NCBI RefSeq assembly: GCF_988243305.1
Contig: NZ_OZ547136.1
DNA length: 64,000 bases
Strand: one strand, 5' to 3'
Shown: positions 5,398 through 58,520 of the stretch, piece after piece
Layout of the letters: each line of letters opens with the position of its first letter
How positions within the stretch are numbered: the first letter of the stretch is position 1
Translations under genes and position numbers: made by a program
Notes under the pieces: model-generated
What the model saw: the letters and a program-made list of their open reading frames with translations, nothing else
The model's database searches: none
What the model was told of the DNA's origin: nothing

Positions 5398-5407
5398 GGA
5401 GTAGCCC

Positions 5408-6025: not shown

Positions 6026-6026
6026 A

Positions 6027-6881
6027 ATGGGAAATGGATGGCATGAATGGCCACTGGTTATCTTTACCGTATTGGGTCAATGCGTAGTAGGCGCGCTGAT
6101 TGTTAGCGGAATTGGCTGGTTCGCCGCCAATAATGACGCAGACCGTCAGCGTATTGTCCGTGGCATGTTTTTCCTCTGGCTGTTGATGGGCATCGGGTTT
6201 ATTGCCTCTGTCATGCACCTGGGATCGCCACTGCGAGCGTTTAACTCGCTGAATCGAATCGGAGCTTCTGGTCTGAGTAACGAGATTGCTGCCGGTTCAA
6301 TATTTTTTGCCGTTGGCGGATTATGGTGGCTGGTGGCGGTCATCGGTAAAATGCCGCAAGCGTTGGGGAAACTCTGGTTACTTGTCAGCATGGCGCTCGG
6401 CGTCATTTTCGTCTGGATGATGACCGGCGTGTATCAAATCGACACCGTGCCAACCTGGCATAACGGTTACACTACGCTGGCTTTCTTCCTGACAGTATTG
6501 TTGAGCGGTCCAATACTTGCTGCCGCAATTCTGCGGGCAGCCCGCATTACATTTAATACCACACCCTTTGCCATCATTAGCGTTCTGGCGCTGATCGCTT
6601 GTGCCGGGGTGATTGTGCTGCAAGGTTTGTCTCTGGCGTCTATTCACTCATCCGTACAACAAGCCAGCGCACTGGTACCAGATTACGCCTCCTTACAGGT
6701 CTGGCGTGTGGTATTGTTATGCACAGGTCTAGGATGCTGGCTTTGTCCGCTCATTCGTCGCCGTGAACCTCACGTTGCCGGACTTGTTCTGGGGCTAATC
6801 CTCATACTTGGCGGTGAGATGATCGGGCGTGTGCTCTTTTATGGCCTGCACATGACGGTAGGAATGGCTATTGCAGGTTAA
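6027..6881 (+). CDS. ynfH: DmsC-like membrane anchor subunit
   Basis: Hydrophobic 284-aa product starting MGNGWHEWPLVIF at the ATG just after the ynfG stop; the track ORF 5787..6881 is an upstream in-frame extension. Confidence 0.85.
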   Translation: MGNGWHEWPLVIFTVLGQCVVGALIVSGIGWFAANNDADRQRIVRGMFFLWLLMGIGFIASVMHLGSPLRAFNSLNRIGASGLSNEIAAGSIFFAVGGLWWLVAVIGKMPQALGKLWLLVSMALGVIFVWMMTGVYQIDTVPTWHNGYTTLAFFLTVLLSGPILAAAILRAARITFNTTPFAIISVLALIACAGVIVLQGLSLASIHSSVQQASALVPDYASLQVWRVVLLCTGLGCWLCPLIRRREPHVAGLVLGLILILGGEMIGRVLFYGLHMTVGMAIAG

Positions 6882-10981: not shown

Positions 10982-11115
10982 CGCATACTCCCTATATTTT
11001 CGCGCTCCGAAATAATCTGTAGGCTATGGTGAAGCACTTCAATACGTGTCGTCAAATTTTTACTTAGGCATGTGATTAACAGCACATTTTTCGGGCTTTT
11101 TCGCTGAAATTTCCC

Positions 11116-12009
11116 TCACCTGAGAGCATTCAGCAGATGAATACGAAAGTTACGCGCAGCCGGACTTTGTTCATGGTGTTTCGGCCAGACCAACCACATT
11201 TCAGAAACCGCATCCTCTTCAGCAATCGGCACCCAGCGCATTTCGTTGAGCTGAACACGTTTAAATGACGCAGGCAAAATTGAAACACCCAGACCAGCGG
11301 AAACCAGACCGATGATGGTCATTGCCTCACCCACCTCCTGAGTGATGACGGGCGTCAAATTGTAACGTCGCATCAGCCCGAGAATATCGTCATACAGCCC
11401 TGTCCCTACGTGCGGATCAAAAAAGACAAAGGGTTCTTTCGCCAGTTCAGCCAGCGTTACACTCGGATTATTTGCCAGGGGATGATCGTGCGGGATCATC
11501 GCCATAAGCGGTTCATGGACGATGACTGCGTGTTCAAGCGTCTCCGGTAACGCTGTGTTACGCAGCAATCCCATATCCAGCGTTCCTTCAATGAGCGGAG
11601 CGATTTGCTCGCGAGTGTTCATTTCGCGGGTTTGTAAATGGACATCGGGATAATCACGGCGAAACAGCGATAACGTATCGGACACCGCCCGAATAAAAGG
11701 AGCGGACGAAGTAAAACCAATGCGCAACTCCCCCGCTTCACCCTGATGCAGTCTTTCAGCGCGAGCGGCAGCGTCATCCACCATAGACAGGATTTGCCGA
11801 CTATCTGCAAGAAACTGTTTTCCTGCTGCCGTCAGCAATACACTGCGATTAGTTCGTGCCAGCAGTCGGGCACCAATTTGTTGCTCCAGCGCCTGAATCT
11901 GCTGACTTAGCGGCGGTTGCGAAATATTCAGGCGGGCAGCGGCGCGCCCGAAATGCAGCTCTTCTGCAACAGCAACAAAGTAACGCAGATGACGAAGTTC
12001 AATATTCAT
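11116..12009 (-). CDS. ynfL: LysR-family transcriptional regulator
   Basis: N-terminal HTH MNIELRHLRYFVAVAEELHFGRAAARLNISQPPLSQQI typical of LysR regulators; divergent from ynfM. Confidence 0.85.
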   Translation of the reverse strand: MNIELRHLRYFVAVAEELHFGRAAARLNISQPPLSQQIQALEQQIGARLLARTNRSVLLTAAGKQFLADSRQILSMVDDAAARAERLHQGEAGELRIGFTSSAPFIRAVSDTLSLFRRDYPDVHLQTREMNTREQIAPLIEGTLDMGLLRNTALPETLEHAVIVHEPLMAMIPHDHPLANNPSVTLAELAKEPFVFFDPHVGTGLYDDILGLMRRYNLTPVITQEVGEAMTIIGLVSAGLGVSILPASFKRVQLNEMRWVPIAEEDAVSEMWLVWPKHHEQSPAARNFRIHLLNALR

Positions 12010-17526: not shown

Positions 17527-19188
17527 TTACACCCCGCTAAATTCTTCCAGTTTCTGGCGGTGGCTGTCGCTTATATCAAAAGCAAAATCCTCATGCTCTG
17601 CCTGGAATGTACCAAACGCCATCAGCGCCGCCACGCTCGGGTCTATCTTGTTCGGTGATTTTTTCTTGTTCGGCTTGATATTGGCGTTCGCGTCACTCTG
17701 CATCACGACGTTACTCATCGACCAGGACAACACCGGATCGCCACGATGCACAATCACCCTGCGGTTAACAAAAACTTCGAACGATTTCGCCGCCGGACTG
17801 AATCTGAGGTAGGTTTGCGGGAACGGCTCCACCTCAAAACCTGCCCCCTGTAATTGCGTTCTGAGATGCGTGGCGTTCCACGTATCAAAGCCCACCAGCC
17901 TGATATTAAATTTCTCCGCGTCCTGCATGATGTCATCTCTGATCCGGTCGTAATCAATGCAGTCGCCAGGCGTTGTGCGTATCCAGCCTGCTTTAGCCCA
18001 CTGACGATAGATGGCGCGGTTTTTATTGGCGGGGTTCTGTAGCTGAAATTCCGGCAGATAGTGACGGGAAACCAGCATAATGGTTTTACCGACCGGAAAG
18101 GCATAGCACACGCTGGAAATATCGCTGGTTGATGATAAGTCCAGCCCCGCGTAACACTCCTGGCCGTGTAAATCTTCCTCCGTGAACGTTCCGGCACACT
18201 CAGCCCATGCGCCGTTACCCATCCACGGGGTAGCCCCCAGGCACCAGATATTAAATCGCTTTGTCATCATCTCCACCCACTGCGACGGAATACCCCGCGC
18301 TTTCTGGATGGTTGAGGCCAGTTTTTCACGATCCACGGAAACATCAATATTAGGGTTCGCCTTTATCCACATCGCCGGATCATCAACCTCGTTTTCGTCG
18401 TCCAGTTCGTAAATCAGTACAAAAATTGAATCGTTGACCTCTTCGCCGTCCAGGATCTGGCAGCAATAATCATAGTGCTGCTTACAGGCTGAAACGACGT
18501 TACTGCCTGATGTGGTAATAGCAAATAACAGCCCTTCGGGACGTGCGCCCATCCCCAGCTCAAGCGCGGAATAAACGCCGTTATCGGGGTGCAAGTGGTA
18601 TTCGTCCACGATGGAAAGGCTGGGGTTTGTTCCCTCGATGGTTGCCGCTTTTGCTGCCAGCGGCTTTAACAGGCTGTTGCTTTTCGGGTGTATCACCTTA
18701 TGCGCCTGAATATTCACCCGCCTGCGTAACGGTCGGGATAAAAGGCACATCTGACGCGCATCATCAAAGACGATCCGCGCCTGGTCACGGCTCACCGCTG
18801 CGGTGTAAATATCCTGCTGACCGTTCTCCATAATCAGAAACCAGTTAGCCAGAATCGCGGCGGTCGTGGATTTCGCATTTTTGCGCGGCACTTCGATAAA
18901 GGCGCTCGTGTATTTGCGCCGTCCGGTGGCCTTAACCTTAAAGCCGAGGATGCACGCAAAGGCGAACTGCTGCCACGGCTCCAGCTCAATGGGTCTGCCA
19001 CGCATCGGCCCTTTTACGTGCGGGCACACCCTGGAAAAGGCAATAAACCGCTCCACAACCTCACGATCGAACGTGTAAAGGGGGCTTTCAAGGTCCGAAA
19101 AGTACCGTTTAACGGCCTGTTTCAGCCGTTTACAGGCCGGAATTTTGCCCGTTTTTACGTCTTCTGCGTACTTATTCCAGGCGGTCAA
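17527..19188 (-). CDS. Phage terminase large subunit
   Basis: 553-aa ORF with ATPase N-terminal region and nuclease C-terminal region typical of Terminase_1-type TerL; follows TerS. Confidence 0.85.
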   Translation of the reverse strand: MTAWNKYAEDVKTGKIPACKRLKQAVKRYFSDLESPLYTFDREVVERFIAFSRVCPHVKGPMRGRPIELEPWQQFAFACILGFKVKATGRRKYTSAFIEVPRKNAKSTTAAILANWFLIMENGQQDIYTAAVSRDQARIVFDDARQMCLLSRPLRRRVNIQAHKVIHPKSNSLLKPLAAKAATIEGTNPSLSIVDEYHLHPDNGVYSALELGMGARPEGLLFAITTSGSNVVSACKQHYDYCCQILDGEEVNDSIFVLIYELDDENEVDDPAMWIKANPNIDVSVDREKLASTIQKARGIPSQWVEMMTKRFNIWCLGATPWMGNGAWAECAGTFTEEDLHGQECYAGLDLSSTSDISSVCYAFPVGKTIMLVSRHYLPEFQLQNPANKNRAIYRQWAKAGWIRTTPGDCIDYDRIRDDIMQDAEKFNIRLVGFDTWNATHLRTQLQGAGFEVEPFPQTYLRFSPAAKSFEVFVNRRVIVHRGDPVLSWSMSNVVMQSDANANIKPNKKKSPNKIDPSVAALMAFGTFQAEHEDFAFDISDSHRQKLEEFSGV

Positions 19189-19528
19189 GCTCGTCCTCTT
19201 CTTCTGTTTCCGGTGGATTTTTACGGCGGCTTATCGGGTCAAAACCGAGCAAGGAGGCCATTTTTATCATCACCCTTTCAGCGTCGGATTTTGCGCTTAA
19301 TGCGGGGTTTCTGCTCTCGCCGCCCTGACTGTTAACAATGCTGAACCCGCGCGCCGCAAGGTCTGCAACGGCTTTCCGGTAAATGGAGTAGTTGACACAA
19401 TACAGTTCCAGATTGCTCCAGTCGGCGGGGGTCAGGTCTCCCCGTTCCGCAAGCTGCCGCGATTTTTCCCGCCACTGCTTCACGGCGATGTCATCCAGGT
19501 AGGCGGGGGCTTTCGGTGGTCTTGCCAT
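19172..19528 (-). CDS. Phage terminase small subunit (P27-family-like)
   Basis: 118-aa ORF with acidic C-terminus, immediately upstream of and overlapping TerL; family assignment from recall. Confidence 0.7.
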   Translation of the reverse strand: MARPPKAPAYLDDIAVKQWREKSRQLAERGDLTPADWSNLELYCVNYSIYRKAVADLAARGFSIVNSQGGESRNPALSAKSDAERVMIKMASLLGFDPISRRKNPPETEEEDELDRLE

Positions 19529-19817
19529 ACTTATTTTTTCGCCAGATTATTTTTCAAAAAATTCCCGTGCATAAAAATTTGAGGAGGCGTTCGGTGCCCG
19601 GCGGGGTCGGGTTTGTCCTGAAAACGCCCCCCACCCCGTCATACAGCCTCATCAGCGATTGCGGAAACATTCCATAACCTCGCGGTCACGGTCGGTTAAT
19701 CGCTTCGCTGTGATGCGTTCTGCGCGTCCTGACGCTTTATCTTTATGCCCTGTTTCCTGTGTCTTCCATGCGTCACGCTGCCTTATAAGTCCACGGATAA
19801 GGCGGTTTTGTTCCCGC
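19529..19817. other. Candidate cos/packaging-site region between HNH endonuclease and TerS
   Basis: 289-bp intergenic gap with G+C-rich tracts (GGTGCCCGGCGGGGTCGGG, CGCCCCCCACCCCG); location inferred by analogy with HK97-type HNH-dependent cos phages. Confidence 0.3.
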
Positions 19818-20258
19818 TCATTCATCAGCGTCATACATCCAGTTATTGCGGTTAGCGGACCGTTCTTCCTCTTCACGAAATCCACCTGCGGCACGCTTGC
19901 TTTTTGTTGCCGGATCAAGCCATTTCGTTTTCTGGTTATGACACGCCTGACACAATGGCTGATGGTTCCATTCGGGCCAGAAGAGAACATCATCGCCGCC
20001 ATCGATGGGGATAATGTGATCCACCACCACGGCGGGCGTATATATCCCCTTCTCAAGGCATCGCACGCATAACGGGTTTTTACTCAGATACATGGCGCGG
20101 TATTTGTCCCACTGTCTGGAGTACCCACGCGCGCGGCGGTGTCCTCGTCTGGCATCCTCTGCACGCCATGCCGCCCGCCTGTGCTCCTCACACTTACCGG
20201 ACTTAACGCGCCTGTTACAGCCTGGTTCTGTACATCGTCTTAATGGTTGCCACGGCAT
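19818..20258 (-). CDS. HNH endonuclease
   Basis: Cys-rich N-terminus (CTEPGCNRR...CEEH) and VVDHIIP...NHQPLCQACHNQKT HNH motif; sits immediately upstream of terS. Confidence 0.8.
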   Translation of the reverse strand: MPWQPLRRCTEPGCNRRVKSGKCEEHRRAAWRAEDARRGHRRARGYSRQWDKYRAMYLSKNPLCVRCLEKGIYTPAVVVDHIIPIDGGDDVLFWPEWNHQPLCQACHNQKTKWLDPATKSKRAAGGFREEEERSANRNNWMYDADE

Positions 20259-20554
20259 CAGTACACCCCCACATCACGGTAAGCCGTCCAGAGTGCGCCT
20301 ATCGTCATGGGTACGCGCGTTTTTGCGTTATCCGCGACAATCTGGCGATTTTCATACAGGTGAGCGATAAACATCATGCAGCCAATCTTTATGGCTGGCG
20401 TGAACTCCAGCCCGTCATCAAAGCGCCTGCCTATGTGTATCTGGCACGCCTCAAGCGATGCGGCAATGTATCCGCTGATTAACTGGTCTTCATCGTCGCC
20501 ATCGATGCGGCAATGGAGTTTCACTTCTTCCAGGGTGATAAGTTCTTCTGTCAT
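20258..20554 (-). CDS. Phage gp6-like head-tail connector protein
   Basis: 98-aa ORF MTEELITLEEVKLHCRIDGDDEDQLISGYIAAS... resembling the gp6-like connector family; within the head module. Confidence 0.6.
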   Translation of the reverse strand: MTEELITLEEVKLHCRIDGDDEDQLISGYIAASLEACQIHIGRRFDDGLEFTPAIKIGCMMFIAHLYENRQIVADNAKTRVPMTIGALWTAYRDVGVY

Positions 20555-20889
20555 TTTTCCGCGCCCTCACGACAAAGAATTTCAAGGCGTGTCCTGGCGG
20601 CATCCGGCAACGGTTGCCCGATGATATTCAGTACACGCCCCGCCAGCGGCCCTGTATTGACCTTTATCCGACTGGTGGCGTTGATGTCCTTCCGGTAGCG
20701 TATCCATATCCTTACCGTTCCAGTCGCCAGCTCTGCACCTGATGAAATGGCCTCCTTGCTGCTGATCATGTTCACGCTTGCCCAGAGTGTGTGACCGTCC
20801 ACCCACGTTTCGAGTATTTCGCCGGTTATATCCCTGGTCTGTTTCAGGGTCTGAATCGTTACCCTGTCACGCAGTCGCCCTATGTTCAT
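20551..20889 (-). CDS. Phage head closure / head-tail joining protein
   Basis: Start taken at MNIGRLRDRVTIQ, overlapping the portal stop by 4 nt; resembles head-tail joining family. Confidence 0.6.
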   Translation of the reverse strand: MNIGRLRDRVTIQTLKQTRDITGEILETWVDGHTLWASVNMISSKEAISSGAELATGTVRIWIRYRKDINATSRIKVNTGPLAGRVLNIIGQPLPDAARTRLEILCREGAEK

Positions 20890-22097
20890 TCCGGTTTTTC
20901 TCCCTCGCTGATTTTTACTTCCTGTTTCCATGCCTGGCTGAACTCATCACCACCATCACGCGGGGACAGCCCTTCACGTTCGCGGGCTTCGTTCGGGCAC
21001 ATAACGCCGGATTTGATGCCGCGTTCATAGGTGGCAAAGCGTTCGCCAGGTGTGGCCCGTAACAGGTCCGCGCTGTCAAACTCCACCTGATACCGGATAC
21101 CAGGTACAGGCGAGGCCACCAGCAGGGCGTTTTTTATCTGCTGCTCAAAGTTCGCCAGCCACGGGCGCATCGTCATGGTGAGAAATGCGCGGCTTGCCTC
21201 GCTGAAGTTGCTGTAGGTGCTGTTGCTGTATTCCTGCAAAAAAATCGGCGAGACGTTGAACATTCGGGCGATGTCTTCAATGGTGAAGCGACGGGAGGCC
21301 AGCCATTCGGCATCCTGATTACTCATGCCCAGCTGCTGATAGCTCATCCCCCCTTCAAGGATGGGCGTTTTTCCGGCGTTTCTGGCCCCTTTGTAGCGTT
21401 CCAGTGCGGCTAATGCCTGTTTGCCCTTCACGCCGTCCAGCCATTCGCCTGACGTGATAACCCCTGCCGCCATCATGCCATCACGCATCACGCTCGCGCC
21501 GTGGCGTTGTTGGGCCAGCCCAAGCCCCAGCGATTCGCGGCAGATGGTTACAGGTGAGCGCCCCATAAAACCGTCATCCGTGGAGTAACGAAGGTGGAGA
21601 ACCTCCCACGGTAAATAGTTGCGGGTGTTTCCGGTGTAGGCGTCAGTGATGCAGTAGCGCCAGTTATGATCACCTGTCTGCTCCACGTTCACCGACTGCG
21701 GCGGGTAAGGATGTAAAGCCACCGGAAAACCATCACGCCCCCACTGAATCACCGCATAAGCATTACCGTTTAACAGGCAGTGGCGGATCATCATTCGCTT
21801 AAACTGGTAGGGAGTCTGCCACGCGTTCGGGCGCTCGTTGAGGATGTGATCGACCGGATGAGAATCAAGCCACTCGCGGGCCTCCTTCCCCTTCTCATTG
21901 CGTACCAGGTACAGGTAACACGGCATGGTAGCCACCGCCTCAGAGATGACCGTCACGGCGTTCATGACGGCGGGCAGTGATTCCGCTGTCCCCGATGATA
22001 CGTACTCACCCGCCCCCGTGTTCGATGTGCCAGCCAGCGCCATAAACTCATCAAGCGTCATGCTGCGCTGCTCTTTTTTTCTTCTGAAAGGCCACAT
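20886..22097 (-). CDS. Phage portal protein (HK97 family)
   Basis: 403-aa ORF immediately downstream of the prohead protease; composition and size typical of HK97-type portals. Confidence 0.8.
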   Translation of the reverse strand: MWPFRRKKEQRSMTLDEFMALAGTSNTGAGEYVSSGTAESLPAVMNAVTVISEAVATMPCYLYLVRNEKGKEAREWLDSHPVDHILNERPNAWQTPYQFKRMMIRHCLLNGNAYAVIQWGRDGFPVALHPYPPQSVNVEQTGDHNWRYCITDAYTGNTRNYLPWEVLHLRYSTDDGFMGRSPVTICRESLGLGLAQQRHGASVMRDGMMAAGVITSGEWLDGVKGKQALAALERYKGARNAGKTPILEGGMSYQQLGMSNQDAEWLASRRFTIEDIARMFNVSPIFLQEYSNSTYSNFSEASRAFLTMTMRPWLANFEQQIKNALLVASPVPGIRYQVEFDSADLLRATPGERFATYERGIKSGVMCPNEAREREGLSPRDGGDEFSQAWKQEVKISEGEKPE

Positions 22098-22098
22098 A

Positions 22099-22671
22099 TC
22101 ACACCCCCGCTAAATCCACCCACCAGCGGCGATTATCCGCACGCGGCATTTTTTCGGGGTGCTGCTCATACAGGGAACGGCGGGCCAGCTCCACGCCGGA
22201 ATCGGGGTAAGCCGGTACCGATGTAACGGTAATTTCGTACAGTTCCGCCACCAGCACGGTGCGCACGCATGGATCTGTTGTGGTATCCCATACATCCTTA
22301 CGGGAGCGAAAGCCAAAGCTCATCCCCGAGATGTCCCCACGCTTAACCAGTTCGATAACGTCGCGCCCTGTACTGGTATCCGGTGGGGTCAGTTCAAAGC
22401 GTAACCCTGTTTCGTCCTCTTCCAGTTTCAGCGTGCCGGAACGGGTGCGCCCCAGTAACATGCTGTGGTCATGCTCATACAGGCCGCGAACGTCATTACC
22501 CGCCGCAAGCCACTCAGTAAACGCCCCCCGCTGGAATTTTTCGTAAAACTCCCCCCATAGCAGTTCTGAAAGCTTATCCCAGCGAACAACGTAGCCCGTC
22601 AGCGTACCGGCTCCGCTGGTAGTGATTTCCGATGACCGGATTTCCATACTCTTCATAATTTTTTCACCCAT
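22099..22671 (-). CDS. HK97-family prohead maturation protease
   Basis: 190-aa ORF between major capsid and portal genes; sequence resembles the S78-type prohead protease family. Confidence 0.75.
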   Translation of the reverse strand: MGEKIMKSMEIRSSEITTSGAGTLTGYVVRWDKLSELLWGEFYEKFQRGAFTEWLAAGNDVRGLYEHDHSMLLGRTRSGTLKLEEDETGLRFELTPPDTSTGRDVIELVKRGDISGMSFGFRSRKDVWDTTTDPCVRTVLVAELYEITVTSVPAYPDSGVELARRSLYEQHPEKMPRADNRRWWVDLAGV

Positions 22672-22710
22672 AAAACACTAAAGGGGCTTTTAAGCCCCTT
22701 CTGTATGCTG

Positions 22711-23868
22711 TTAATCGTCGTCCTGTGGCAGTTCCAGAATCTTGATCGCGTTCGAATCCACCACGCCACCGCCTAAATATTTCTGCGTGAAAATTTTGAT
22801 GAAGCCCGGCTCTGTGAGGTTGTCCGGTCTGGTGCGAACACCTGTTTCGTGATCAACAATGTAGTAACCGCGTTTGAAGTCACCCAGGGCAATAACGTTA
22901 TCCGGCATAAACTCCAGATATTCGACCGGAAGGCCCAGTAACGTATCAGGATCACCCGCCTGTAAACGGTCGCGCCAGATGTAATCACCGTTCGCGTTCT
23001 TCACCTTCTGAAGTTTTGCCGCCGTCGTGGAGTTAACCACCCAGACCGCGTTTTTGCGGTATTTTTTACGTAATGCAAATTTCAGGTCGATCAGCGGGTC
23101 CGCAGATGTCCACGCCAGAGATTCGGAAGGTTTAATTACCTGCAACGTACCAAAATCACGCTCTTTGTCGTTCTTCTCTGCACGGGGTACGGATAAAAAA
23201 CCTTTTGCTTTTTTGTCACCGTCGCCCACAACCAGATCGCTTTCTTCGGTTTCCGTGAAGGTGTCGCCAATCTCGCCCGTCAGCCATGAAAGGATGTCCA
23301 CATCGGAAAAATCCACGATTTCCTGTGTGGTGCGCGGGTACGCATAGACCGGATACAGCTTAATGCTCACCTCGTTAATCTGCGGGGTGCTGGTCTGTTC
23401 GCGTGTCTTACCCTCTTCACCGTGGTTAACGGTCGCACCGCCAGCGGAAACAAGCTGCTTAAACTCGTTGCTGCTGATTTTCTTCACGGTACAGATGCGG
23501 CGCATGGTGGACTCATCCGCCAGCATTCGCATGATTTCGGTGTTCAGTTCGGGGATAACGGTATAACCACCATCAGCGGGAACGCCTGTACTTAATGCGC
23601 GGGTTTCACCTGTCAGAATGTAGTTGCGTAGTTCTGCGGGGTCAGTGGTCTGGCTGCTTTTACCTGGCTTGCTGCGCTCTTCGTCTGCAATGGCTTCAAG
23701 GCGGGAAATGTCTTTATCGAGGGATTCAGCTTTAGCGCGTAATTCGTCAAATTTTGCGCCCTCAGCATCGTTAAGACTGCGGTTTTCTTTTTCCGCGTTC
23801 TCCAGCATGTCGCGCATCTGATTTTTAATGGCGGTTTTCTGCTGGCGTAATTCGATTATTCTCGGCAT
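22711..23868 (-). CDS. HK97-fold major capsid protein with N-terminal coiled-coil (scaffold-like delta) domain
   Basis: Start taken at the ATG for MPRIIELRQQKT; the track ORF extends to a TTG at 23913; N-terminal charged coiled-coil followed by a capsid-like body. Confidence 0.8.
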   Translation of the reverse strand: MPRIIELRQQKTAIKNQMRDMLENAEKENRSLNDAEGAKFDELRAKAESLDKDISRLEAIADEERSKPGKSSQTTDPAELRNYILTGETRALSTGVPADGGYTVIPELNTEIMRMLADESTMRRICTVKKISSNEFKQLVSAGGATVNHGEEGKTREQTSTPQINEVSIKLYPVYAYPRTTQEIVDFSDVDILSWLTGEIGDTFTETEESDLVVGDGDKKAKGFLSVPRAEKNDKERDFGTLQVIKPSESLAWTSADPLIDLKFALRKKYRKNAVWVVNSTTAAKLQKVKNANGDYIWRDRLQAGDPDTLLGLPVEYLEFMPDNVIALGDFKRGYYIVDHETGVRTRPDNLTEPGFIKIFTQKYLGGGVVDSNAIKILELPQDDD

Positions 23869-23906
23869 AAAAAAAAGTCCTGGGGTTAAGTAAGGAACTC
23901 CAGGAC
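23869..23906 (-). terminator. Stem-loop plus U8 run immediately abutting the capsid gene start codon
   Basis: Minus strand reads GTCCTGGAGTTCCTTACTTAACCCCAGGAC followed by TTTTTTTT then ATG. Confidence 0.5.
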
Positions 23907-24111
23907 GCGGCAAACACTCAACCGTTTTTCATAAGGAAATCAGCAATCGCACCGATCGTTTTCCCGCCTGGTAATGAATATTGGCGAGCACATTAACAGG
24001 CGGGAAAGTGGCCCCAGCGTCCTGGCACCACGGGCGAGAATAATCATGATTCAGTTCGGGTAAAATATGCCGATCCGCTCAGTGAACAACGTGGAACAAC
24101 CACGAACAAAT

Positions 24112-24149
24112 AATTTACAAAAAATAACAAAAAGCCGGATTGCTCCGGC
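24112..24149 (-). terminator. Rho-independent terminator downstream of the small gene 24170..24394
   Basis: Minus strand GCCGGAGCAATCCGGC hairpin followed by TTTTTGTTATTTTTT. Confidence 0.6.
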
Positions 24150-24169
24150 TGTATGTGCTGTATGGGTGC

Positions 24170-24394
24170 TCAGTCTCTGATCCCTTTCAGAAATTCTATC
24201 AATGCATCTGTCTGTTCAGGATTTACTGCCAGCATTTCACCGGATAGCGCGCAACGAACAAAACCATGATGATCCTTTTCAATCAGTGCGCCCGTCTCCA
24301 GGAATGCGCGGTAATCATTGATGCTCATCGTCTCCATGTTGTCAGCATGGTATTTATCACGCTGTTTTAATATCTCATCAAATTTCATCGGCAT
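24170..24394 (-). CDS. Small hypothetical protein (74 aa) in a terminator-bounded cassette
   Basis: ATG at 24394 preceded by AGAGGAAAAAACA RBS; terminators on both sides. Confidence 0.55.
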   Translation of the reverse strand: MPMKFDEILKQRDKYHADNMETMSINDYRAFLETGALIEKDHHGFVRCALSGEMLAVNPEQTDALIEFLKGIRD

Positions 24395-24488
24395 TGTTTT
24401 TTCCTCTGTTGTGTCTGTTTGTTTCAGATAGTAACTATGCCTGACCGTGACGAAAACCCGGTAATGCGCCATACCGTTTCAACTGGTG

Positions 24489-24512
24489 CAAAAAAAGCCG
24501 GATTTCTCCGGC
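24489..24512 (-). terminator. Rho-independent terminator ending the replication-region operon
   Basis: Minus strand GCCGGAGAAATCCGGC hairpin followed by TTTTTTT. Confidence 0.6.
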
Positions 24513-24563
24513 TGTGTGATTAGCTGTCCTGGTAATTGCGCCATATTTCATCACCAGCACCAT

Positions 24564-24833
24564 CTATCCCCATTTCGGCATAAGTGCGATCGACTGCCTT
24601 TTCAGGTCTCCGTAATTATCCGGTGGCTCCGGTGGCCTCTGTGCCTTCCTGGAACATTCCAGCCGTCGCATCGTGATGTGATGCCGTTCCTTGTCTGTCT
24701 CCACCAGCAGCATGACTTCACCCCATCGCGCCGACGCCCTCCGGTAAAATCCTTTAGCCTCGAGTTCCTCCGCTATGCGGTCATGTACCATCCTCACCCC
24801 CTCAGAACGGAATACCGTCACCGTAAGGGTCAT
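24564..24833 (-). CDS. Hypothetical protein downstream of ssb; start uncertain (24833 or 24791)
   Basis: ORF in track 24564..24911; candidate ATG starts at 24833 (GGGAGG upstream) and 24791 (GTGAGG upstream). Confidence 0.4.
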   Translation of the reverse strand: MTLTVTVFRSEGVRMVHDRIAEELEAKGFYRRASARWGEVMLLVETDKERHHITMRRLECSRKAQRPPEPPDNYGDLKRQSIALMPKWG

Positions 24834-25212
24834 CGCCTCCCGCTGGTGGCTGATTACCCTGTGTGCCTGTGGTTTTGCGTCTGTTCCCGCCAGGACGTGC
24901 CGCACGGGCACTGATTACGCTGTCTGCAATAACCTGCCAGCCCTGCCGCGTTTCTCCGTTCTGTCCGGTCCACTGGCTTACCTGCATCGTGCCGGATACG
25001 CTGGCAACATCGCCTTTTTGATGTTTAGCCAGGAAGTCGGCCTGTTTGCCAAATGCGATGACCGATAACCATAACGTCGCCTGTCCGTCCTGTGCCTGGC
25101 TGCATGGCAAAGATACCGCCATACGCGCCAGCGTCATCGGTGTGCCCTTGCTGGTCTGTTTTACCTGCGGGTCGTCCACCAGCCGCCCGTAAGCGGCTAT
25201 CTGTGCCGTCAT
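24802..25212 (-). CDS. ssb: Single-stranded DNA-binding protein
   Basis: 136-aa ORF with Gly/Gln-rich linker and C-terminal acidic tail ending DDPYGDGIPF, the hallmark SSB C-terminus. Confidence 0.8.
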   Translation of the reverse strand: MTAQIAAYGRLVDDPQVKQTSKGTPMTLARMAVSLPCSQAQDGQATLWLSVIAFGKQADFLAKHQKGDVASVSGTMQVSQWTGQNGETRQGWQVIADSVISARAARPGGNRRKTTGTQGNQPPAGGDDPYGDGIPF

Positions 25213-25490
25213 AATTCCACCTCTCCGGTTTTAACGTTGATGGTTGTTACCTGTTCCGCTTCGGCAATCTCCCGTTCTGTCAGCGTGGCAAAGTTTGCCG
25301 CCGCCGTGGTCATGAATGCGCTTATCAGGTCGGGATGTTCCTTCGCGTATCCTTCCCGCGTGTGGCGGTCTATCGTTCTGATTGCCACCTTTAAAGCGTG
25401 CTCAGTCATGTCTAACGCTTTATATTTTGGCTCTGTTCTGTCTCTGCGTTTTTGGGTCATTTCTCGCAACCTCTCACTTTTTCGCCTCAC
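25209..25490 (-). CDS. Hypothetical basic protein upstream of ssb
   Basis: 93-aa ORF overlapping ssb start by 4 nt; 5' end overlaps the iteron array so true start may be internal. Confidence 0.4.
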   Translation of the reverse strand: MRRKSERLREMTQKRRDRTEPKYKALDMTEHALKVAIRTIDRHTREGYAKEHPDLISAFMTTAAANFATLTEREIAEAEQVTTINVKTGEVEL

Positions 25491-25662
25491 TTTTTCAAGC
25501 GTCTCACTTCGTCGCAGTTGGGATTTTCGGTTTTTCTATGTGTGTGTTTCATAAGTATTTTTTTACCCCTCACTTTTGAGGATGTATACAGGTCGAAAAG
25601 TGAGGGAGAGCGGGCTAATTTTGGCCCTCTTTCTATCCCCCTCGCTTTTGCTCCTCACTTTT
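25470..25662. repeat. Iteron array (CTCACTTTT, about 7 copies including one inverted); putative replication origin
   Basis: Copies at 25473, 25486, 25502 (imperfect), 25569, 25596 (inverted), 25640 (imperfect), 25654; immediately 3' of the replication ATPase gene. Confidence 0.6.
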
Positions 25663-27061
25663 ATAGCGGCGCTACATCATCCCCATCGATACGAATAACC
25701 CCATCTTTTTCCAGCTTGTACAGCCAGCGCCGGAAGTTTTTCATTTCATACCCCAGTTTTTTCATGTCATCACGTAACAGCGGGATCGTGCACTTGTCGC
25801 CGTTCTGTGTGCGTGAACGGATGCACCCCCATAGCGCGGTATGGTTTTCCGTCTTGTTCCCTGCCTCCTCGATGCGCTCCAGTTCAACAGGAGGGCGCGG
25901 ATCATCCACCACTACCAGCGACGTGATTAATTCACCGTCAGCGTCGGTAAAAAGCTCCACCACGCGTAAGTCATATGCGGCTTCTTTGAGTTCCTCCGCG
26001 TCCTTCATTTTGGTGCATGAGATAACCAGCGCTTCGCTTCCTGCGTCCTCCCTGCGTATCCGGTATTCAGCATCCAGCGAAGCACGAAATGCACTGGAAC
26101 CGCGCGCGCCTTTCGTCTCATCCTTGCCGGAATGGTGAACCACCAGCACCGTGGCCCCTGTGCGTCGTTTCAGTTCGTCACAACCACGGATAAACGCCCC
26201 CATATCACGGGAATCATTTTCATCATTCCCACCAAAGCAACGCGCCAGCGTATCCAGAATAATCATGCGTACAGGTTTACCCGTTTCCCGCTCCACCTGA
26301 CGGGCAGCGATAACCATTTCATCAACATCAAGCGGGGCAGCCGGAAAGATGGGGCGGTTTACCAGATACAGATTTTTCACCTGCTCATCGTGCACAACCT
26401 CCCAGGCTTTTACACGACGCGGAACACCTATACCGCCTTCACCAACCACATAGAGAACCGCACCATGTGCAACCCTGCGGCCTCCCCACTGGCGACCAGT
26501 GGCAACATGGCACGCCCACGATCCGGCAAGGAATGATTTATAGGACCCGCTAGCCCCGTATATGCTGCATAGCGATACCGCCGGAATAATCCCCTTAACC
26601 ACGTAATCCAGTTGCGTGTCGTATCCGGTAGATCCAACGCTCATCGGTAGCGTGGTTTTTCGCTGGTGGTTTTTTTCTTCCACCGGCTCTTTCCCGCGCA
26701 CCCGTTCCAGGTATTCGCGCCAGTTCTCCCGCATATGGCTGTGCATCCCTTCGGGGTAATAATTCGCATCAGTTACACCCGCCGCCGCCAGCTTGTGCGC
26801 AATGGCATTAATATTTGATGGCCTGATGTGGCCTGCCTTGTACAGCCGGACACAATAGCGCCCCTCGTCGATGATTCTCAGGTCTGCCAGTTCATCCAGT
26901 TGATCATCAGCCAGCACAACGGGAGGCACATTATCGCCAGCCAGTCGCCCGTCCTGTTCCTGCCACTGTTTCGCATGTGCCCAGGCATCACTACCCGCAA
27001 AAATAATGACTTCGGTCATCTTGTCGTAAGGCTGTTTTTTTAAGTTCGGTGCGCTTTTCAT
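25661..27061 (-). CDS. Replication initiator with RecA-fold ATPase domain (satellite Pri-Rep-like)
   Basis: 466-aa ORF with Walker A-like YGASGSYKS and downstream ILDTL Walker B-like segment. Confidence 0.65.
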   Translation of the reverse strand: MKSAPNLKKQPYDKMTEVIIFAGSDAWAHAKQWQEQDGRLAGDNVPPVVLADDQLDELADLRIIDEGRYCVRLYKAGHIRPSNINAIAHKLAAAGVTDANYYPEGMHSHMRENWREYLERVRGKEPVEEKNHQRKTTLPMSVGSTGYDTQLDYVVKGIIPAVSLCSIYGASGSYKSFLAGSWACHVATGRQWGGRRVAHGAVLYVVGEGGIGVPRRVKAWEVVHDEQVKNLYLVNRPIFPAAPLDVDEMVIAARQVERETGKPVRMIILDTLARCFGGNDENDSRDMGAFIRGCDELKRRTGATVLVVHHSGKDETKGARGSSAFRASLDAEYRIRREDAGSEALVISCTKMKDAEELKEAAYDLRVVELFTDADGELITSLVVVDDPRPPVELERIEEAGNKTENHTALWGCIRSRTQNGDKCTIPLLRDDMKKLGYEMKNFRRWLYKLEKDGVIRIDGDDVAPL

Positions 27062-27357
27062 TTCTTGCCCCTGAATCCGTTAATCATGGTTTTCAGCTTC
27101 TGGATGTTTGCCCGTGCCCTGGCGTTGCTGGTGGGCACGTTATGCGGCGCGGTCTGTACCAGAGAAAAATCACGCCGGAACTGATAAACAGGCATCACGC
27201 AATCATATTCGTAACCTTCACGGCGGTAGGTTACGCGCCGTTCTTCCACGCCCTTAATCATTACCGTGCCGCCGTACTGGTCGCGGTAAATATCACCGCG
27301 CGTAAATTTAGGGTGAGTGTTGCCACTGGCAGTTAAGCCAGAATATTTAAGTTTCAT
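27058..27357 (-). CDS. Hypothetical protein, translationally coupled to the replication gene
   Basis: 99-aa ORF whose stop overlaps the replication ATPase start by 4 nt. Confidence 0.45.
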   Translation of the reverse strand: MKLKYSGLTASGNTHPKFTRGDIYRDQYGGTVMIKGVEERRVTYRREGYEYDCVMPVYQFRRDFSLVQTAPHNVPTSNARARANIQKLKTMINGFRGKK

Positions 27358-27362
27358 TATTT

Positions 27363-27596
27363 TTATTCTCCGGTGTGCTGTTCTTTATATCTGTCGTGCA
27401 ATAGATCTATTTCTTGCAGTTCCATTATTACAGGCTCAAGAAGCGTTATTAATGCCGTGGCAATTCTTGATTTTTGTTTGTCGCGTTCATTGTCGCCAAG
27501 TGTTTCAAGCCATATGCGCAATATTTCCAGCATGTTTTCACTGTGAGAAAGTGCAAGAAATACGCGGTCTATTGTTTCGTGGTAAATATCACGCAT
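27363..27596 (-). CDS. Hypothetical small protein
   Basis: 77-aa ORF tightly packed between neighbouring ORFs on the same strand. Confidence 0.4.
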   Translation of the reverse strand: MRDIYHETIDRVFLALSHSENMLEILRIWLETLGDNERDKQKSRIATALITLLEPVIMELQEIDLLHDRYKEQHTGE

Positions 27597-27597
27597 A

Positions 27598-28034
27598 TTA
27601 ATCCCCGTCCGTCGTTTTTCTTAAAATAACCTCTGTCACGAAATCAGCATAATCGGCGGCGATATTCAGTACATCAAGCCCCGTTGATTTATATTCTCTC
27701 GTGGAAAGTAAGAAAAAAGCCGCTCTAATAAGTTCTGGCATTGACGAAAGCGCATCAGCCGCATCATCAGGAACGCCGGAAAATTCCTGTTTCAGGGAAT
27801 TAAAACGATCATCACGCATAACCCCCCCCCATTTTCACAATCAGCAACAAGAATATTTTTAGCGTCATTCAGCGACCGCGTTGCGATGTATCGGATACAT
27901 TCCAGGGCGAACTGTGTCCGGTCTTTCTGTTCTTCTCCCTGCGCAAGCTCTGCAGTGCATTCAATATCGATAAGCGCGTGCATCAGCGTAGTGAGCGCGG
28001 CGGCTGCTGCGTCCGGTGTGGTTTTATTGCACAT
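27598..28034 (-). pseudogene. Gene split into two frames by a G9 homopolymer tract (27822-27830); frameshifted or phase-variable
   Basis: Upstream part starts at ATG 28034 with AGGAGG RBS and ends 27792; downstream part 27598..27819 begins 3 nt after the tract in the +1 frame. Confidence 0.55.
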
Positions 28035-28314
28035 GGCACACCTCCTGACGAATACGGGCGGCGAATACAGCAACACAACCGGACGGGCAACGGCTACGCG
28101 CTTCGCGTTCCGTCCAGGCGGTTACGTGGATGATTTGAGATTCTCCGGCACTTAGTGCCAGAAAACGCCACACAAAGGCCGTTTGTGTGTGTATAAGGCG
28201 TGGTATATGATTTACGGCAACCATAACGGCTCCTAGTTTACGTTGTTGGTTAGACGCCCCGTATGTGTTCCCAGCACTGCGGGGCGTTGATTTTTGTGTA
28301 ATGGCAAGTACAAT

Positions 28315-28358
28315 GGTAATTACCATGTAGGTATAGTAATGAAGGGTAATTACCATGT
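28315..28358. promoter_or_regulatory. Two copies of 14-bp repeat GGTAATTACCATGT, each containing the perfect palindrome GGTAATTACC; putative operator
   Basis: Copies at 28315-28328 and 28345-28358, 30 bp apart; second copy overlaps the ATG of the small plus-strand gene; region lies between divergent gene sets. Confidence 0.55.
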
Positions 28359-28528
28359 CAACACCATTAGAAAAACGTTCGCCTCCATACCAAATGCGAT
28401 TACCGGAAGACTTCAGAGCGCAGCTAGAAGAAGCAGCTAAGGCCGATGGCGACACATCTTTAGCCACTTGGATTAAACGCGTTCTCCGCAAAGAATTACA
28501 GCAACGCGGCATAGAGCCAAAAGGTTGA
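28355..28528 (+). CDS. Small putative DNA-binding protein (Arc/MetJ-type ribbon-helix-helix-like), 57 aa
   Basis: ATG 28355 to TGA 28526-28528: MSTPLEKRSPPYQMRLPEDFRAQLEEAAKADGDTSLATWIKRVLRKELQQRGIEPKG; one of only two plus-strand genes in the island. Confidence 0.5.
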   Translation: MSTPLEKRSPPYQMRLPEDFRAQLEEAAKADGDTSLATWIKRVLRKELQQRGIEPKG

Positions 28529-28549
28529 ATTTCAGAAGGAGATAAAATA

Positions 28550-28702
28550 ATGAACTGGCTGTTACATACCCTCCCAGGTCGCATTCTCATTGCACTAATT
28601 ATTTTATGGATTTTGTACCAATTCGGTTTTTTCGATTCGCTTTGGAAGCCTGACTGTTCCGTTAACCCTGGCGATGTACTGAAAGGCTGTAAAAATGGCT
28701 GA
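28550..28702 (+). CDS. Small hydrophobic peptide (50 aa), predicted membrane-associated
   Basis: AGGAG RBS 8 nt upstream of ATG 28550; MNWLLHTLPGRILIALIILWILYQFGFF... single hydrophobic segment. Confidence 0.45.
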   Translation: MNWLLHTLPGRILIALIILWILYQFGFFDSLWKPDCSVNPGDVLKGCKNG

Positions 28703-29057
28703 TCAGGGTTACTCCCTGTAATGCCTTTAACTGGCCCTCTTAAAGAGGGTTGGTTATCTTCGCAGCTCTCTACGTTTTTCGTCGGAACCTCTGAACCTAA
28801 GCAGTGTTGATGTTCAGGAGAACCCGAATACTGTTCGTGTTCGTTGCTCGCCAATTCTCGCGTTTCGCGATAATCAAAATGATTCAATGGGTTGAGATGT
28901 CCGTACGTTAAACGTACGCGGTTAATTTGTACATGCGAATTTCGTCGGCTCAAATTCTGCGCAACCCTGCTTGAGTTATGCAAATAGCACGCGGCTAACT
29001 CACAAGGATTTGAGCGCCCCCAAACGGGGGAGCGCAAAATTTTAGGCATAAGACGCA

Positions 29058-29771
29058 TCAGCGAATCTCCAACACTGACGATGAAGTGATCAGGCTGGCG
29101 AACGCATCCATACGGCGGGCAACCTCACGCACCGCATCGCCTGGACTCATGTCATTACGCACCGCCTCATTAAAGGCCGCCTGTTCGATTTTCTGCATCA
29201 CTACCAACAGCCCCAATTGCTGTTCGTCTGCGGTACCGCGTTCACCATCAGACAAACCAGCCACGCGGTTTTCAGCGCGGGCCAGATTGATGTAATGGTG
29301 CCGTTGTGCGCCCAGAGCTTTTAATCTGTCGCGGCTTTCGTGATAGCCAGGCAGGTACTCACGGCGGATAGGTTCTGCGGCGCGGCGCTTAGTGAATGCC
29401 TTCGTAACATCCAGTTTGAACTGGTTAATACGCTCAGGATCACGCCCTCGGGTGATACGCAGCAGATAGTCGAGCTGCGGCTCATTCAGCAGATAACTAA
29501 TCTCAGGACGCCCACGCTTTCGGCCGGATTTTCCCGATTTCAAATCGGTTAATTCCTTGAGTGACTGACGAGGCAGTGATCCCAGCTCGCGCAATCTGCT
29601 CTGGTGCGATTTAATCGTCGCGCTTAAGCTTTCATGTTGTATTCCGGCTCGCTCTGAAATAACGCGGGAATCGATACGCGGCTCCGATTTGTGATTAATT
29701 AAAATATCGCTCTGGCTGGCTTCAGGGCGAACGAATCCCCGCCCACGTTCTGGCGTATATTCAATCTTCAT
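29058..29771 (-). CDS. Hypothetical protein, possible phage-type regulatory protein
   Basis: 237-aa ORF between AlpA and the divergent control region; basic central segment GRKRGRP; no confident family assignment. Confidence 0.4.
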   Translation of the reverse strand: MKIEYTPERGRGFVRPEASQSDILINHKSEPRIDSRVISERAGIQHESLSATIKSHQSRLRELGSLPRQSLKELTDLKSGKSGRKRGRPEISYLLNEPQLDYLLRITRGRDPERINQFKLDVTKAFTKRRAAEPIRREYLPGYHESRDRLKALGAQRHHYINLARAENRVAGLSDGERGTADEQQLGLLVVMQKIEQAAFNEAVRNDMSPGDAVREVARRMDAFASLITSSSVLEIR

Positions 29772-29828
29772 GGTTATAGCTCTGTGTTCAGATGATTGAT
29801 GTGTGGCGGCTGCGTGCCGCCAGCGTGA

Positions 29829-30017
29829 TTAATGAACTGCCTTGCAGCTATCCTTCCAGGCCAGAACCTCGGATAAAGACCAGCCAACGGAACGACCGCC
29901 AAGTTTACGACGTGATGGGAATTGTCCGGCCTTTTCCAGGCGGTAGCGACACGTACGGCTAAGGCCGGTTAGTTTTTCGCATTCTTTTTCACGTATAAAC
30001 CGATCAGTGCTTAACAC
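29829..30017 (-). CDS. alpA: AlpA-family phage transcriptional regulator / excisionase-like HTH protein
   Basis: 62-aa ORF with AlpA-like signature ...LTGLSRTCRYRLEKAGQFPSRRKLGGRSVGW...; adjacent to integrase. Confidence 0.7.
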   Translation of the reverse strand: MLSTDRFIREKECEKLTGLSRTCRYRLEKAGQFPSRRKLGGRSVGWSLSEVLAWKDSCKAVH

Positions 30018-30381
30018 TATTGCCCCCTTTCGTTTCTTAAAGAGTCATCAGGTGTCTTATTGTGTCGTATTGTTCCCGCTAGAGTGATAAATGGCAAATA
30101 CTGAGGATGTATGATTTACAGAAAATGAAACAGTAAGAATAAAATCTTTTAAATTCATGTTAATACAAAGGCATAAAATATTGTTTCATGCCTTTTTTCT
30201 CGCTCTTTAAAGAGTGATTCGCTAGTGTATAAAAAACCAGTAACGCATTAAAAATCAGCTACTTATAAATCCGTACGCTTTTTCGCCTCTTGTTCGTAGT
30301 TGTTCCACATTGTTGCTCATTGTTGCACGTTGTATCTGTTCGCATATACAGTATGCGCATACTGAAAAAACACGAAAAAAA

Positions 30382-31611
30382 TTATTTTCTTCTGGCTACT
30401 GGTAGCGTGGTTACGTTTTCATGTGTTCCCGCCAGTATCCCTAACCGCTCCGTCCACATATCCAGCGCATTGCGTTTAGCATCCAGATAACGGGAATGAT
30501 TATAAACTCGCTGCATTCCTGGCATCTGGTGGCCTGTAAGCTGCTCCACGACATGCGGATCAACGCCTAAATCGTTCAGCATGGTTGTAAAGGTGCGCCG
30601 GATGTCATGCAGTGACCAGTGAGGATGATTAAGCCTCCTGTGCGCTAATCTTCCATACTGCGATACGCTGGCCTCCTGTTTCACTTCCCCCAGCAATAAG
30701 CCCGTGTGCCTGTTCTGCTCCACCAGCTGCGTGACGAACGGCAGGATCGCTTCCGGTATGGGCCGGAATATTGCGACCTTCGTTTTGCTGTGCTCCTTCG
30801 GAACGGTCCATAGCATTTCCGTAAAATCCCACTCCCCGATCTCCGATAACCTCAGTTCTACCGTTCTGGCTCCGAAGACAATCAGGAGGCGGATTAACGC
30901 GACGTAGTAAGGGGAGAATATTTTTTTGTCCAGTGCCTGCAATAATTCGCCAAGTTCTTTGTTACTTAAGACACGTTCGCTTATATCCGGTTTTTTCCCA
31001 ACGTCCGCCACGTTCAGATCGTCCAGAACGTTGCTGATTGCATAGCGCCGCCTACGGCAGAACTTAAGCGCCTGTTTGCACGCCTGTAGCACGAATCCGG
31101 CAGTAACAGGCGTTCGCTTTGCCACCTGGTCAAAACAGGCCAGCCAGTGCCGTAGCTCGCATTTATCCAGCGGCATAGCACCAATCTGCTGTATTACGTG
31201 ATTATTAAGTCGCCTTTTCAGGGCGATATAATCCACGCGGTTTTCCTTTACGTAATACTCAAGCCAGTAGGTGAGCGCATCGCCAACCGTTACGGGCTTT
31301 AACGCTTCCTGTACGGTGTAATTCATCTCATGACGTGGATTTTTCCCCTCAGCCAGCCATGTGCGACACTGTGCGGCTTTTTCCCTGGCTGCTTTCAGGC
31401 TCAGATCAGGATAACTTCCCAGCTTAATGCGTTCGGGTCGTGTCTCCCTTCCCGTTCCGGCCCTGTATGTGAAATACCAGGTCAATTTCCCTGATGTTAA
31501 ATATTTCACGCTCAGGTTTCCGCCATCACTATAAAACGTGTTTTTCTCCGCTGGCTTACCATGAAGTTTCCTTAGCAAGGTATCGCTCAGTTTGTTCATT
31601 GCTCTGCTCAC
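30382..31611 (-). CDS. int: Tyrosine site-specific integrase (P4-type)
   Basis: 409-aa ORF; C-terminal catalytic region with HDIRRTF (H-x-x-R) and a downstream tyrosine; located at the island right end. Confidence 0.85.
   Translation of the reverse strand: MSRAMNKLSDTLLRKLHGKPAEKNTFYSDGGNLSVKYLTSGKLTWYFTYRAGTGRETRPERIKLGSYPDLSLKAAREKAAQCRTWLAEGKNPRHEMNYTVQEALKPVTVGDALTYWLEYYVKENRVDYIALKRRLNNHVIQQIGAMPLDKCELRHWLACFDQVAKRTPVTAGFVLQACKQALKFCRRRRYAISNVLDDLNVADVGKKPDISERVLSNKELGELLQALDKKIFSPYYVALIRLLIVFGARTVELRLSEIGEWDFTEMLWTVPKEHSKTKVAIFRPIPEAILPFVTQLVEQNRHTGLLLGEVKQEASVSQYGRLAHRRLNHPHWSLHDIRRTFTTMLNDLGVDPHVVEQLTGHQMPGMQRVYNHSRYLDAKRNALDMWTERLGILAGTHENVTTLPVARRK

Positions 31612-55724: not shown

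Positions 55725-58520
<2,796 letters not shown>

Follow-up and report, generated by a model that had tools for sequence, protein, structure and literature searches.

The origins of Gram-negative PICIs lie 3′ of rep and consist of two sets of iterons around an AT-rich region, and the rep-ori segment of EcCICFT073 maintains a plasmid (Fillol-Salom et al. 2018, PMC6092414). In the SaPIs, the Reps are self-loading SF3/SF6 AAA+ helicases with a C-terminal winged helix that binds 5-6-nt iterons located after the rep ORF (Qiao et al. 2022, PMC9371898). These Reps move 3′ to 5′, and the SaPI origins carry opposed iterons on both sides of an AT-rich region (PMC9371898). Capsid-forming PICIs, islands of about 15 kb of which EcCIEDL933 is the prototype, package their own DNA with their own terminase, and no origin is described in the paper on EcCIEDL933 (10.1101/2022.09.08.507074).

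The window (the whole stretch of 64,000 nucleotides analysed in this study) carries an island in which the rep gene is followed by a gap of about 200 bp filled with short repeats. Judging from the sequence, this gap, at positions 25461-25662, is very probably the replication origin of a capsid-forming PICI integrated in tqsA. What was found fits the PICI/SaPI pattern: the array is located 3′ of the initiator ORF, two iteron sets (seven copies, for six to twelve in origins of this type) flank an AT-rich region, and the predicted winged helix of the initiator co-varies with the iterons. A first-pass annotation of this DNA had proposed a satellite-type island origin here, and this reading is supported by the position of the array, the iteron sets around the A/T tract, their conservation, the co-variation and the exchange of the array together with rep. 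As the same layout was published for Gram-negative PICIs in 2018, the array represents a kind of origin that is already described, here joined to another variant of Rep.

The locus resembles the Gram-negative PICIs in its gene order (int, a unidirectional operon, DUF4222-rep, and then ssb/perC) and in the common N-domain of Rep (62% identity to the P4-primase-type Rep of a sister island). However, the Rep of the CFT073 locus is annotated as a 'DNA primase family protein', whereas the Rep in the window has a RecA-fold, RepA-like core and is associated with another iteron word. With the SaPIs (SaPI1, SaPIbov1 and SaPI5) the locus has in common a helicase followed by a C-terminal winged helix (predicted here), iterons directly after the ORF and an AT-rich centre, and self-loading is proposed for both. 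It differs from them in the RecA fold of the Rep core, which is closest to RSF1010 RepA, RAD51 and KaiC, in having just one inverted iteron, and in the lack of sequence homology. The SaPI Rep class (SF3/SF6 AAA+) was rejected for this protein, since its core is Pfam AAA_25 and its structural matches are RecA-fold proteins (RAD51, RSF1010 RepA, KaiC and DnaB). The SaPI analogy drawn in the first-pass annotation thus holds for an origin directly 3′ of the initiator, but not for the helicase core, which is RSF1010-RepA-like. RSF1010 RepA is a 5′-to-3′ helicase, so the polarity of the window Rep may be opposite to that of the SaPI Reps.

The IncQ plasmids divide the work among three separate proteins, with RepC for iteron binding, RepA as the helicase and RepB as the primase, and have iterons of about 20 bp. 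The locus resembles RSF1010/IncQ in the fold of the helicase core and in being iteron-based without reliance on host DnaA boxes, but the window Rep unites the helicase with a DNA-binding domain, the iterons are 9 nt long, and there is no primase. Because these functions are fused (helicase and winged helix in one ORF) and no match to a primase family is present, an IncQ replicon was ruled out. The iteron plasmids (pSC101, F, R6K and RK2) and the lambda O/ori system also have repeated initiator sites beside an A/T-rich unwinding element and winged-helix recognition. Their initiators lack a helicase of their own and bring in host DnaB; the iterons are 17-22 bp in length (those of lambda are within the O gene), and DnaA/IHF sites are commonly present. 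In contrast, the window iterons measure 9 nt, and no DnaA box, IHF site, Fis site or GATC was found in 25400-25720 (up to one mismatch being allowed for DnaA and IHF). A classical iteron plasmid origin of the RepA/pi/TrfA type was therefore rejected on account of the short iterons, the lack of DnaA boxes and an initiator with its own helicase core.

The island and its Rep protein

The ORFs of the island extend from 17527 to 31611. A tyrosine integrase gene (30382-31611) adjoins the split tqsA, and pntB; besides rep and ssb, the island encodes a DUF4222 protein, a PerC-like protein, an HK97-type capsid protein, a protease, a portal protein, connectors, HNH, TerS and TerL, and has no tail or lysis genes (gene names are from matches in related genomes and in the sister island L093; loci are numbered with the prefix L). 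Based on this gene set (int, rep, SSB, an HK97-type capsid module, HNH and TerS/TerL), the island is a capsid-forming PICI of the EcCIEDL933 type, integrated in tqsA. The best match among complete RefSeq E. coli genomes is 98.2% identical over 90% of the island and occurs in non-O157 strains, while the rep-ori segment alone is 99.7-99.8% identical to O157:H7 copies; by these comparisons the island is a mosaic. With a best complete-genome match at this level, its identity with EcCIEDL933 itself was not established, and since none of the complete RefSeq E. coli genomes carries an identical island, EcCIEDL933 replication data apply to it by homology only. A query with the rep-ori segment gave full or partial matches at up to 12 places per E. 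coli genome; several O157:H7 strains have 3-4 such places. Among these is a second island (L001), which lies between phoQ and roxA and whose Rep and array are identical, so that one Rep could fire several islands per cell.

The rep gene (25661..27061, minus strand) encodes 466 residues and ends with a TAA stop codon. It had been taken for a RecA-fold ATPase gene in the first-pass annotation, and this was borne out by Pfam AAA_25, which covers residues 148-315 (E 5.5e-43); phrog_2850 covers the full length, and the RefSeq name of the protein is 'helicase RepA family protein'. In an AF2 model built from a 61-sequence alignment (pLDDT 83.8), an N-domain (residues 1-123) is joined by a disordered linker to a RecA-like core, which is followed by a C-terminal unit of three helices and two strands. 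The domains were delimited as follows, all on the minus strand: the N-domain at aa 1-125 (nt 26687-27061), the RecA-fold RepA-like ATPase core at aa ~140-385 (nt 25907-26644) and the predicted winged helix at aa 395-466 (nt 25664-25879). In Foldseek searches, the core matched RAD51, KaiC, DnaB and the hexameric helicase RSF1010 RepA (1g8y/1nlf/1olo, TMt 0.65-0.71), and phmmer aligned Rep with RSF1010 RepA 1g8y at an E-value of 0.0055. No primase family was detected in Rep by phrog, Pfam and primase-model searches.

When modelled alone, the C-terminal 72 residues gave a pLDDT of 91.9. The top Foldseek matches of this domain are all winged-helix proteins (PcaR, Fur, DtxR/IdeR, LexA, BlaI, MexR and an ORC subunit), with probabilities of 0.9-0.99 and weak E-values of 0.04-0.16. 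A sequence search with the profile of the domain against the PDB returned nothing significant, and the winged-helix fold is therefore taken from the AF2 model. The models put Asn442 (codon AAC, 25736..25738, minus strand) in the opening turn of the recognition helix (helix 3; 440/443-452).

An island SSB (phrog_44, E 3.6e-40; also annotated so in RefSeq) is encoded at 24802..25212 on the minus strand and is probably an accessory of the replicon. Between it and the array lies an 83-aa gene (25209..25460, minus strand, phrog_1231), which sets the downstream boundary of the origin; the array can be explained without it.

An array of iterons between rep and the next gene

The array occupies the entire gap from the rep stop codon to the ATG of the next gene (25460). 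A pattern search identified five exact copies of CTCACTTTT within 25473-25662, four on the plus strand (25473, 25486, 25569 and 25654) and one inverted, on the minus strand (25596-25604), plus two degenerate copies: CTCGCTTTT, with one mismatch, at 25641, and CTCACTTCG, with an intact GTGAG core, at 25503. These numbers agree with the first-pass annotation, which had counted about seven 9-mers in roughly 190 bp; five of its positions stand, while the two imperfect copies, which it had placed at 25502 and 25640, were each off by one. The 64 kb contain only one further exact copy, at 46827, the other five of six being within 190 bp. The GTGAG core occurs six times in the gap of about 203 nt, as compared to 0.28 expected from the density in the whole window, and a sliding scan found just three places in the window, the array among them, where any 9-mer reaches at least three copies per 203 nt. 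An Rfam search of 24000-28500 at a permissive E-value gave two sub-threshold chance hits, both outside the array.

Four iterons are on the rep side of an A/T-rich tract and three are past it. Read in the sense of rep (minus strand), the repeat word is AAAAGTGAG. Iteron 1 (25654..25662) is exact, is aligned in all relatives and shares two bases with the rep stop codon (25661-25663), so the array does abut the 3′ end of rep, as had been noted from the letters alone. Iteron 2 (25641..25649, minus strand), 13 nt from iteron 1, is degenerate, reading AAAAGCGAG with one mismatch, and aligns with intact iterons in the relatives. Iteron 3 (25596..25604, plus strand) is exact and is the only inverted copy; it stands head-to-head with iteron 4 (25569..25577, minus strand, exact), and the two form an inverted repeat with 11/11 complementary positions, the pair with its spacer spanning 25567-25606. 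The 18-nt spacer (25578..25595) has the palindrome GTATAC at 25584-25589 and is a candidate for the first melting site. Iteron 4 is 83 nt from iteron 6 and 85 nt from iteron 1, and these spacings are kept in relatives L002-L004.

The A/T-rich tract covers 43 nt (25523..25565), is A-rich on the rep-sense strand and is kept in the relatives, as seen from the alignment; it is a candidate DNA-unwinding element. Its A+T content is 75%, and the GC content is 0.33-0.35 across 25520-25599, which confirms the A/T-rich stretch seen at first pass. Past the tract, the order in the rep sense is iteron 5 (25503..25511; degenerate, CGAAGTGAG, core GTGAG intact), iteron 6 (25486..25494; exact) and iteron 7 (25473..25481; exact), after which a decayed copy covers the ribosome-binding site of the following gene; all three iterons of this distal set are direct and read on the minus strand. 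The decayed copy, GTTGCGAGA (25462..25470, minus strand), was recognized by alignment, has GCGAG at 25463 and abuts the ATG. In four relatives (L088, L002, L003 and L090), the last iteron, GGTGAGGA or GGTGGGGA, is intact, ends one base before the next ATG and serves as the Shine-Dalgarno sequence. Overall, the window array is more decayed than those of its relatives, with iteron 2 mismatched and no copies left near +27, +145 and +195, where they would be expected, and the efficiency of the origin could therefore be reduced.

Conservation of the array behind Rep homologues

The loci compared were those of 80 Rep homologues from bacteria represented by one genome per species, seven chosen variants (L086-L092), five E. 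coli loci and the window. Enrichment was scored as at least four copies of some 7-mer in the 260 nt after the Rep stop codon, for which 87 loci were usable. Such repeats were found at 71 of the 87 loci (82%), as compared to 96 of 6520 background windows (1.5%) of the same loci, and the 260 nt after the stop were the most repetitive window of their locus in 63 cases. The copies are positioned at about +3/+5, +18, +60 (inverted) and +90 after the stop and, beyond the A-rich tract, at +145 to +197, and these offsets are kept from E. coli to Xenorhabdus, Serratia and Kosakonia; a further inverted copy is seen near +138 in the Xenorhabdus relatives. The place of the array behind Rep homologues is retained both within Enterobacterales and outside this order. 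Between the opposed copies (+57 to +97), most Enterobacterales loci carry a core CCTGTATA(C/T)A (TGTATA(C/T)A) or CATATATA, irrespective of the iteron word.

Under this constant layout, the repeat word itself changes by clade, with cores GTGAG, GTGGG, GTGGGGGA and GTGCGGCA. The word is AAAAGTGAG in the window island, AAAGTGGG in other E. coli islands, AAAGTGAGGAA in Xenorhabdus, AAGTGGGGGAA in Serratia, Pectobacterium and Morganella, and AAGTGCGGCA in Kosakonia, Enterobacter soli and Klebsiella, and Rep relatives at 30-40% identity have unrelated repeat words. All copies within one element carry the same variant. When nine E. coli/Salmonella origins were aligned, every iteron column was A in one group and G in the other, with the spacers in common. 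The array is also retained at L087 and L089-L092, where the 83-aa gene is replaced by other genes, and it is absent at L005, an uninformative locus whose rep is frameshifted and truncated. A simple k-mer count in the 260 nt after the stop gave no clear array at L047, L048, L050, L057-L061, L063, L065, L068, L069 and L076; the types concerned come from Photorhabdus, Kluyvera/Citrobacter (EKKF types), Klebsiella sp., Sodalis and Acerihabitans, in which either the iterons could be more degenerate or the origin could be located elsewhere.

One further locus, L094 (CP018459.1), is a K. pneumoniae 'plasmid' of 16,971 bp deposited as circular, which is cf-PICI-like, with an integrase, a capsid protein, a terminase and the same Rep type. 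Its rep is at 5081-6445 and its iterons, AAGTGCGGCA around a CCTGTATACA core, are at 4870-5085, with Ser at the equivalent of residue 442.

The sister island L093 is of the same type as the window island, with the same tqsA site and packaging genes and with a DUF4222 protein the same as that of L002. Its rep is of the P4-primase type and reaches the P4-family primase model; the island has no copy of CTCACTTTT, and GGTAGAYAG repeats occupy the corresponding gap. The common part of its Rep and the window-type Rep is limited to residues 1-125 (62% identity). As the two Reps are alike over these residues only and the repeats differ, the helicase, the DNA-binding domain and the repeats are swapped as a single cassette. 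In L001 and L002, the capsid/terminase modules are different and the array is kept. As a separate observation, the otherwise unrelated Rep of L093 is encoded at 10230-11981, and the joint between the common N-domain and the rest of Rep falls in the disordered linker (aa 123-134).

Residue 442 of Rep and the variable base of the iterons

Residue 442 of Rep, in the motif KxF(x)RWL, tracks the variable base of the iterons at 65 of 65 informative loci, a count whose members are not phylogenetically independent, with perhaps four independent N/H backgrounds in E. coli/Salmonella and about four clade-level switches. The change between N and H is nevertheless seen on four or more distinct protein backgrounds. 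Asn is paired with A (27/27), His with G (8/8), Lys with G (23/23), Ser with C (5/5) and Gly with C (2/2); that is, N goes with GTGAG, H or K with GTGGG, and S or G with GTGCG. Among ten E. coli/Salmonella Reps, 442 is the sole column of the whole protein that separates the GTGAG from the GTGGG types, and in one pair (L003, H, GTGGG; L087, N, GTGAG) the last 62 residues are identical except for this one. The seven chosen variants (L086-L092) served as a test, with expectations recorded before the sequences were fetched: all three predicted from N gave GTGAG, and L090 (H) gave GTGGG as predicted. For L089, the expectation had been entered as H, the actual residue is N and the iterons are GTGAG; the two G-type loci carried no prediction.

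Asn442 is therefore a candidate for the residue that reads the A of GTGAG. We would give an even chance to a broader reading, according to which: residue 442 alone sets the origin specificity of the family (N to A; H or K to G; S or G to C), with natural N/H variants being orthogonal Rep-ori pairs that allow islands to coexist without cross-firing; and the family consists of RecA-fold (SF4-like) self-loading initiator-helicases, in which helicase and winged helix were fused independently of the AAA+ SaPI Reps and are swapped with the origin as one cassette behind a common N-domain.

Discussion

From the co-variation and by analogy with the described islands, we infer that Rep binds the array and fires the origin, and melting, self-loading, the site of opening, the SSB role and host primase use are likewise proposed. 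The 9-nt iterons (AAAAGTGAG in the rep sense) would be the sites for the C-terminal winged helix of the island's own Rep, with two of the seven sites at the stop codon, a head-to-head pair around GTATAC, and three past the 43-nt A/T tract. After induction and excision, Rep bound to both iteron sets would assemble into rings via its RecA-fold, RSF1010-RepA-like core, open the DNA at the GTATAC core and/or the A/T tract, and load itself as the replicative helicase. The single strands would be covered by the island SSB, encoded two genes downstream, and host primase and polymerase would complete replication; the use of the host primase is proposed because no primase domain is detectable in Rep. 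Asn442, in the first turn of the recognition helix, would read the A of GTGAG and would thereby set which origin a given Rep fires.

Other explanations of the array were weighed against an origin. The repeats might be operator sites through which Rep or another island regulator controls initiation at, or read-through into, the downstream genes (the 83-aa gene, ssb, perC and the packaging operon), without any origin being present. The array does form the 5′ leader of the next gene, its last repeat doubles as the Shine-Dalgarno sequence in relatives, winged-helix proteins are typical repressors, and iteron-binding initiators often autoregulate. However, a promoter scan revealed no sigma-70-like promoter on the minus strand in 25461-25660, and the sole terminator-like hairpin (GGGCTAATTTTGGCCC, 25612-25627), which has the wrong strand orientation and lacks conservation in L002-L004, was rejected as a terminator and taken as incidental. 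In addition, the downstream gene varies among loci that keep the array, the domain co-varying with the repeats is fused to a helicase, and a bipartite array around an A/T-rich tract is the layout of an origin. Operators in place of an origin are thus unlikely, while a secondary regulatory role of the array beside the origin is possible. Somewhat less likely still, the repeats would bind Rep for copy-number control or incompatibility only (titration, handcuffing), with replication starting elsewhere in the island. Plasmid iterons have such a double role, and many E. coli genomes hold several partial or full rep-ori matches, but neither the island nor the window has a second array of the motif (the lone other exact copy being at 46827), conservation within the array extends to the A/T tract and to the TATA-like core that separates the opposed iterons, and the position of the array equals that of the tested EcCICFT073 ori.

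It is more doubtful again that the array is a packaging signal (cos or pac) for the island's TerS/TerL/HNH. The island relies on a terminase of its own to package its DNA (10.1101/2022.09.08.507074), and some pac/cos regions contain short repeats. This explanation is contradicted by the fact that the array goes with rep rather than with the packaging genes: in L093 the packaging module is the same and the motif is missing, while L001 and L002 keep the array next to other capsid/terminase modules. Least credible of all is that the repeats cluster by chance or are non-functional products of slippage in a T-rich spacer, which the comparative data rule out. A first-order Markov simulation sometimes yields repeated 9-mers through T-runs; as T-runs inflate repeated 9-mers, this null was not useful for the region and was dropped in favour of scanning the actual window and of the background across the family. 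Chance would have to account for five exact copies of a non-homopolymeric 9-mer, one of them inverted, for positions conserved across genera with concerted change of sequence, and for the family-wide enrichment of 82% versus 1.5%.

An origin fired by the island's own Rep matters in that the origin determines where, and by which protein, the satellite amplifies after helper-phage induction; this amplification comes before the highly efficient spread of the satellite among E. coli, Shiga-toxin strains included. The picture of the field is unchanged, and the published model of PICI origins is extended to a Rep with a different helicase fold; what is added is the family-wide co-variation, which places a candidate specificity contact at residue 442. 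If the residue-to-base rule holds, the origin type and the likely cross-activation or incompatibility of co-resident islands could be predicted from sequence, and the Rep-ori cassette with its N442/H442 variants would provide a pair of small, possibly orthogonal, host-primase-dependent replicons.

Other repeats in the window

Inside the island, the palindrome ATGGTAATTACC(AT) occurs twice, 20 nt apart (28313-28356), on either side of a minus-strand TTGACA-17-TACTAT that resembles a promoter; the early operon of the island probably has its operator/promoter here. The minus strand also carries a pair of almost identical hairpins that look like terminators, AGCCGGAG(A/C)AATCCGGCT with a T-run behind it, at 24496-24513 and 24133-24150; they flank a 100-aa gene (24170-24472). 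Elsewhere in the window, two GATAAAACGTTTTAYC palindromes (56783-56879) are located between the divergent ORFs 55725-56753 (minus strand, 342 aa) and 56724-58520 (plus strand); this region resembles the malI-malX control region with its MalI boxes and would then be ordinary.
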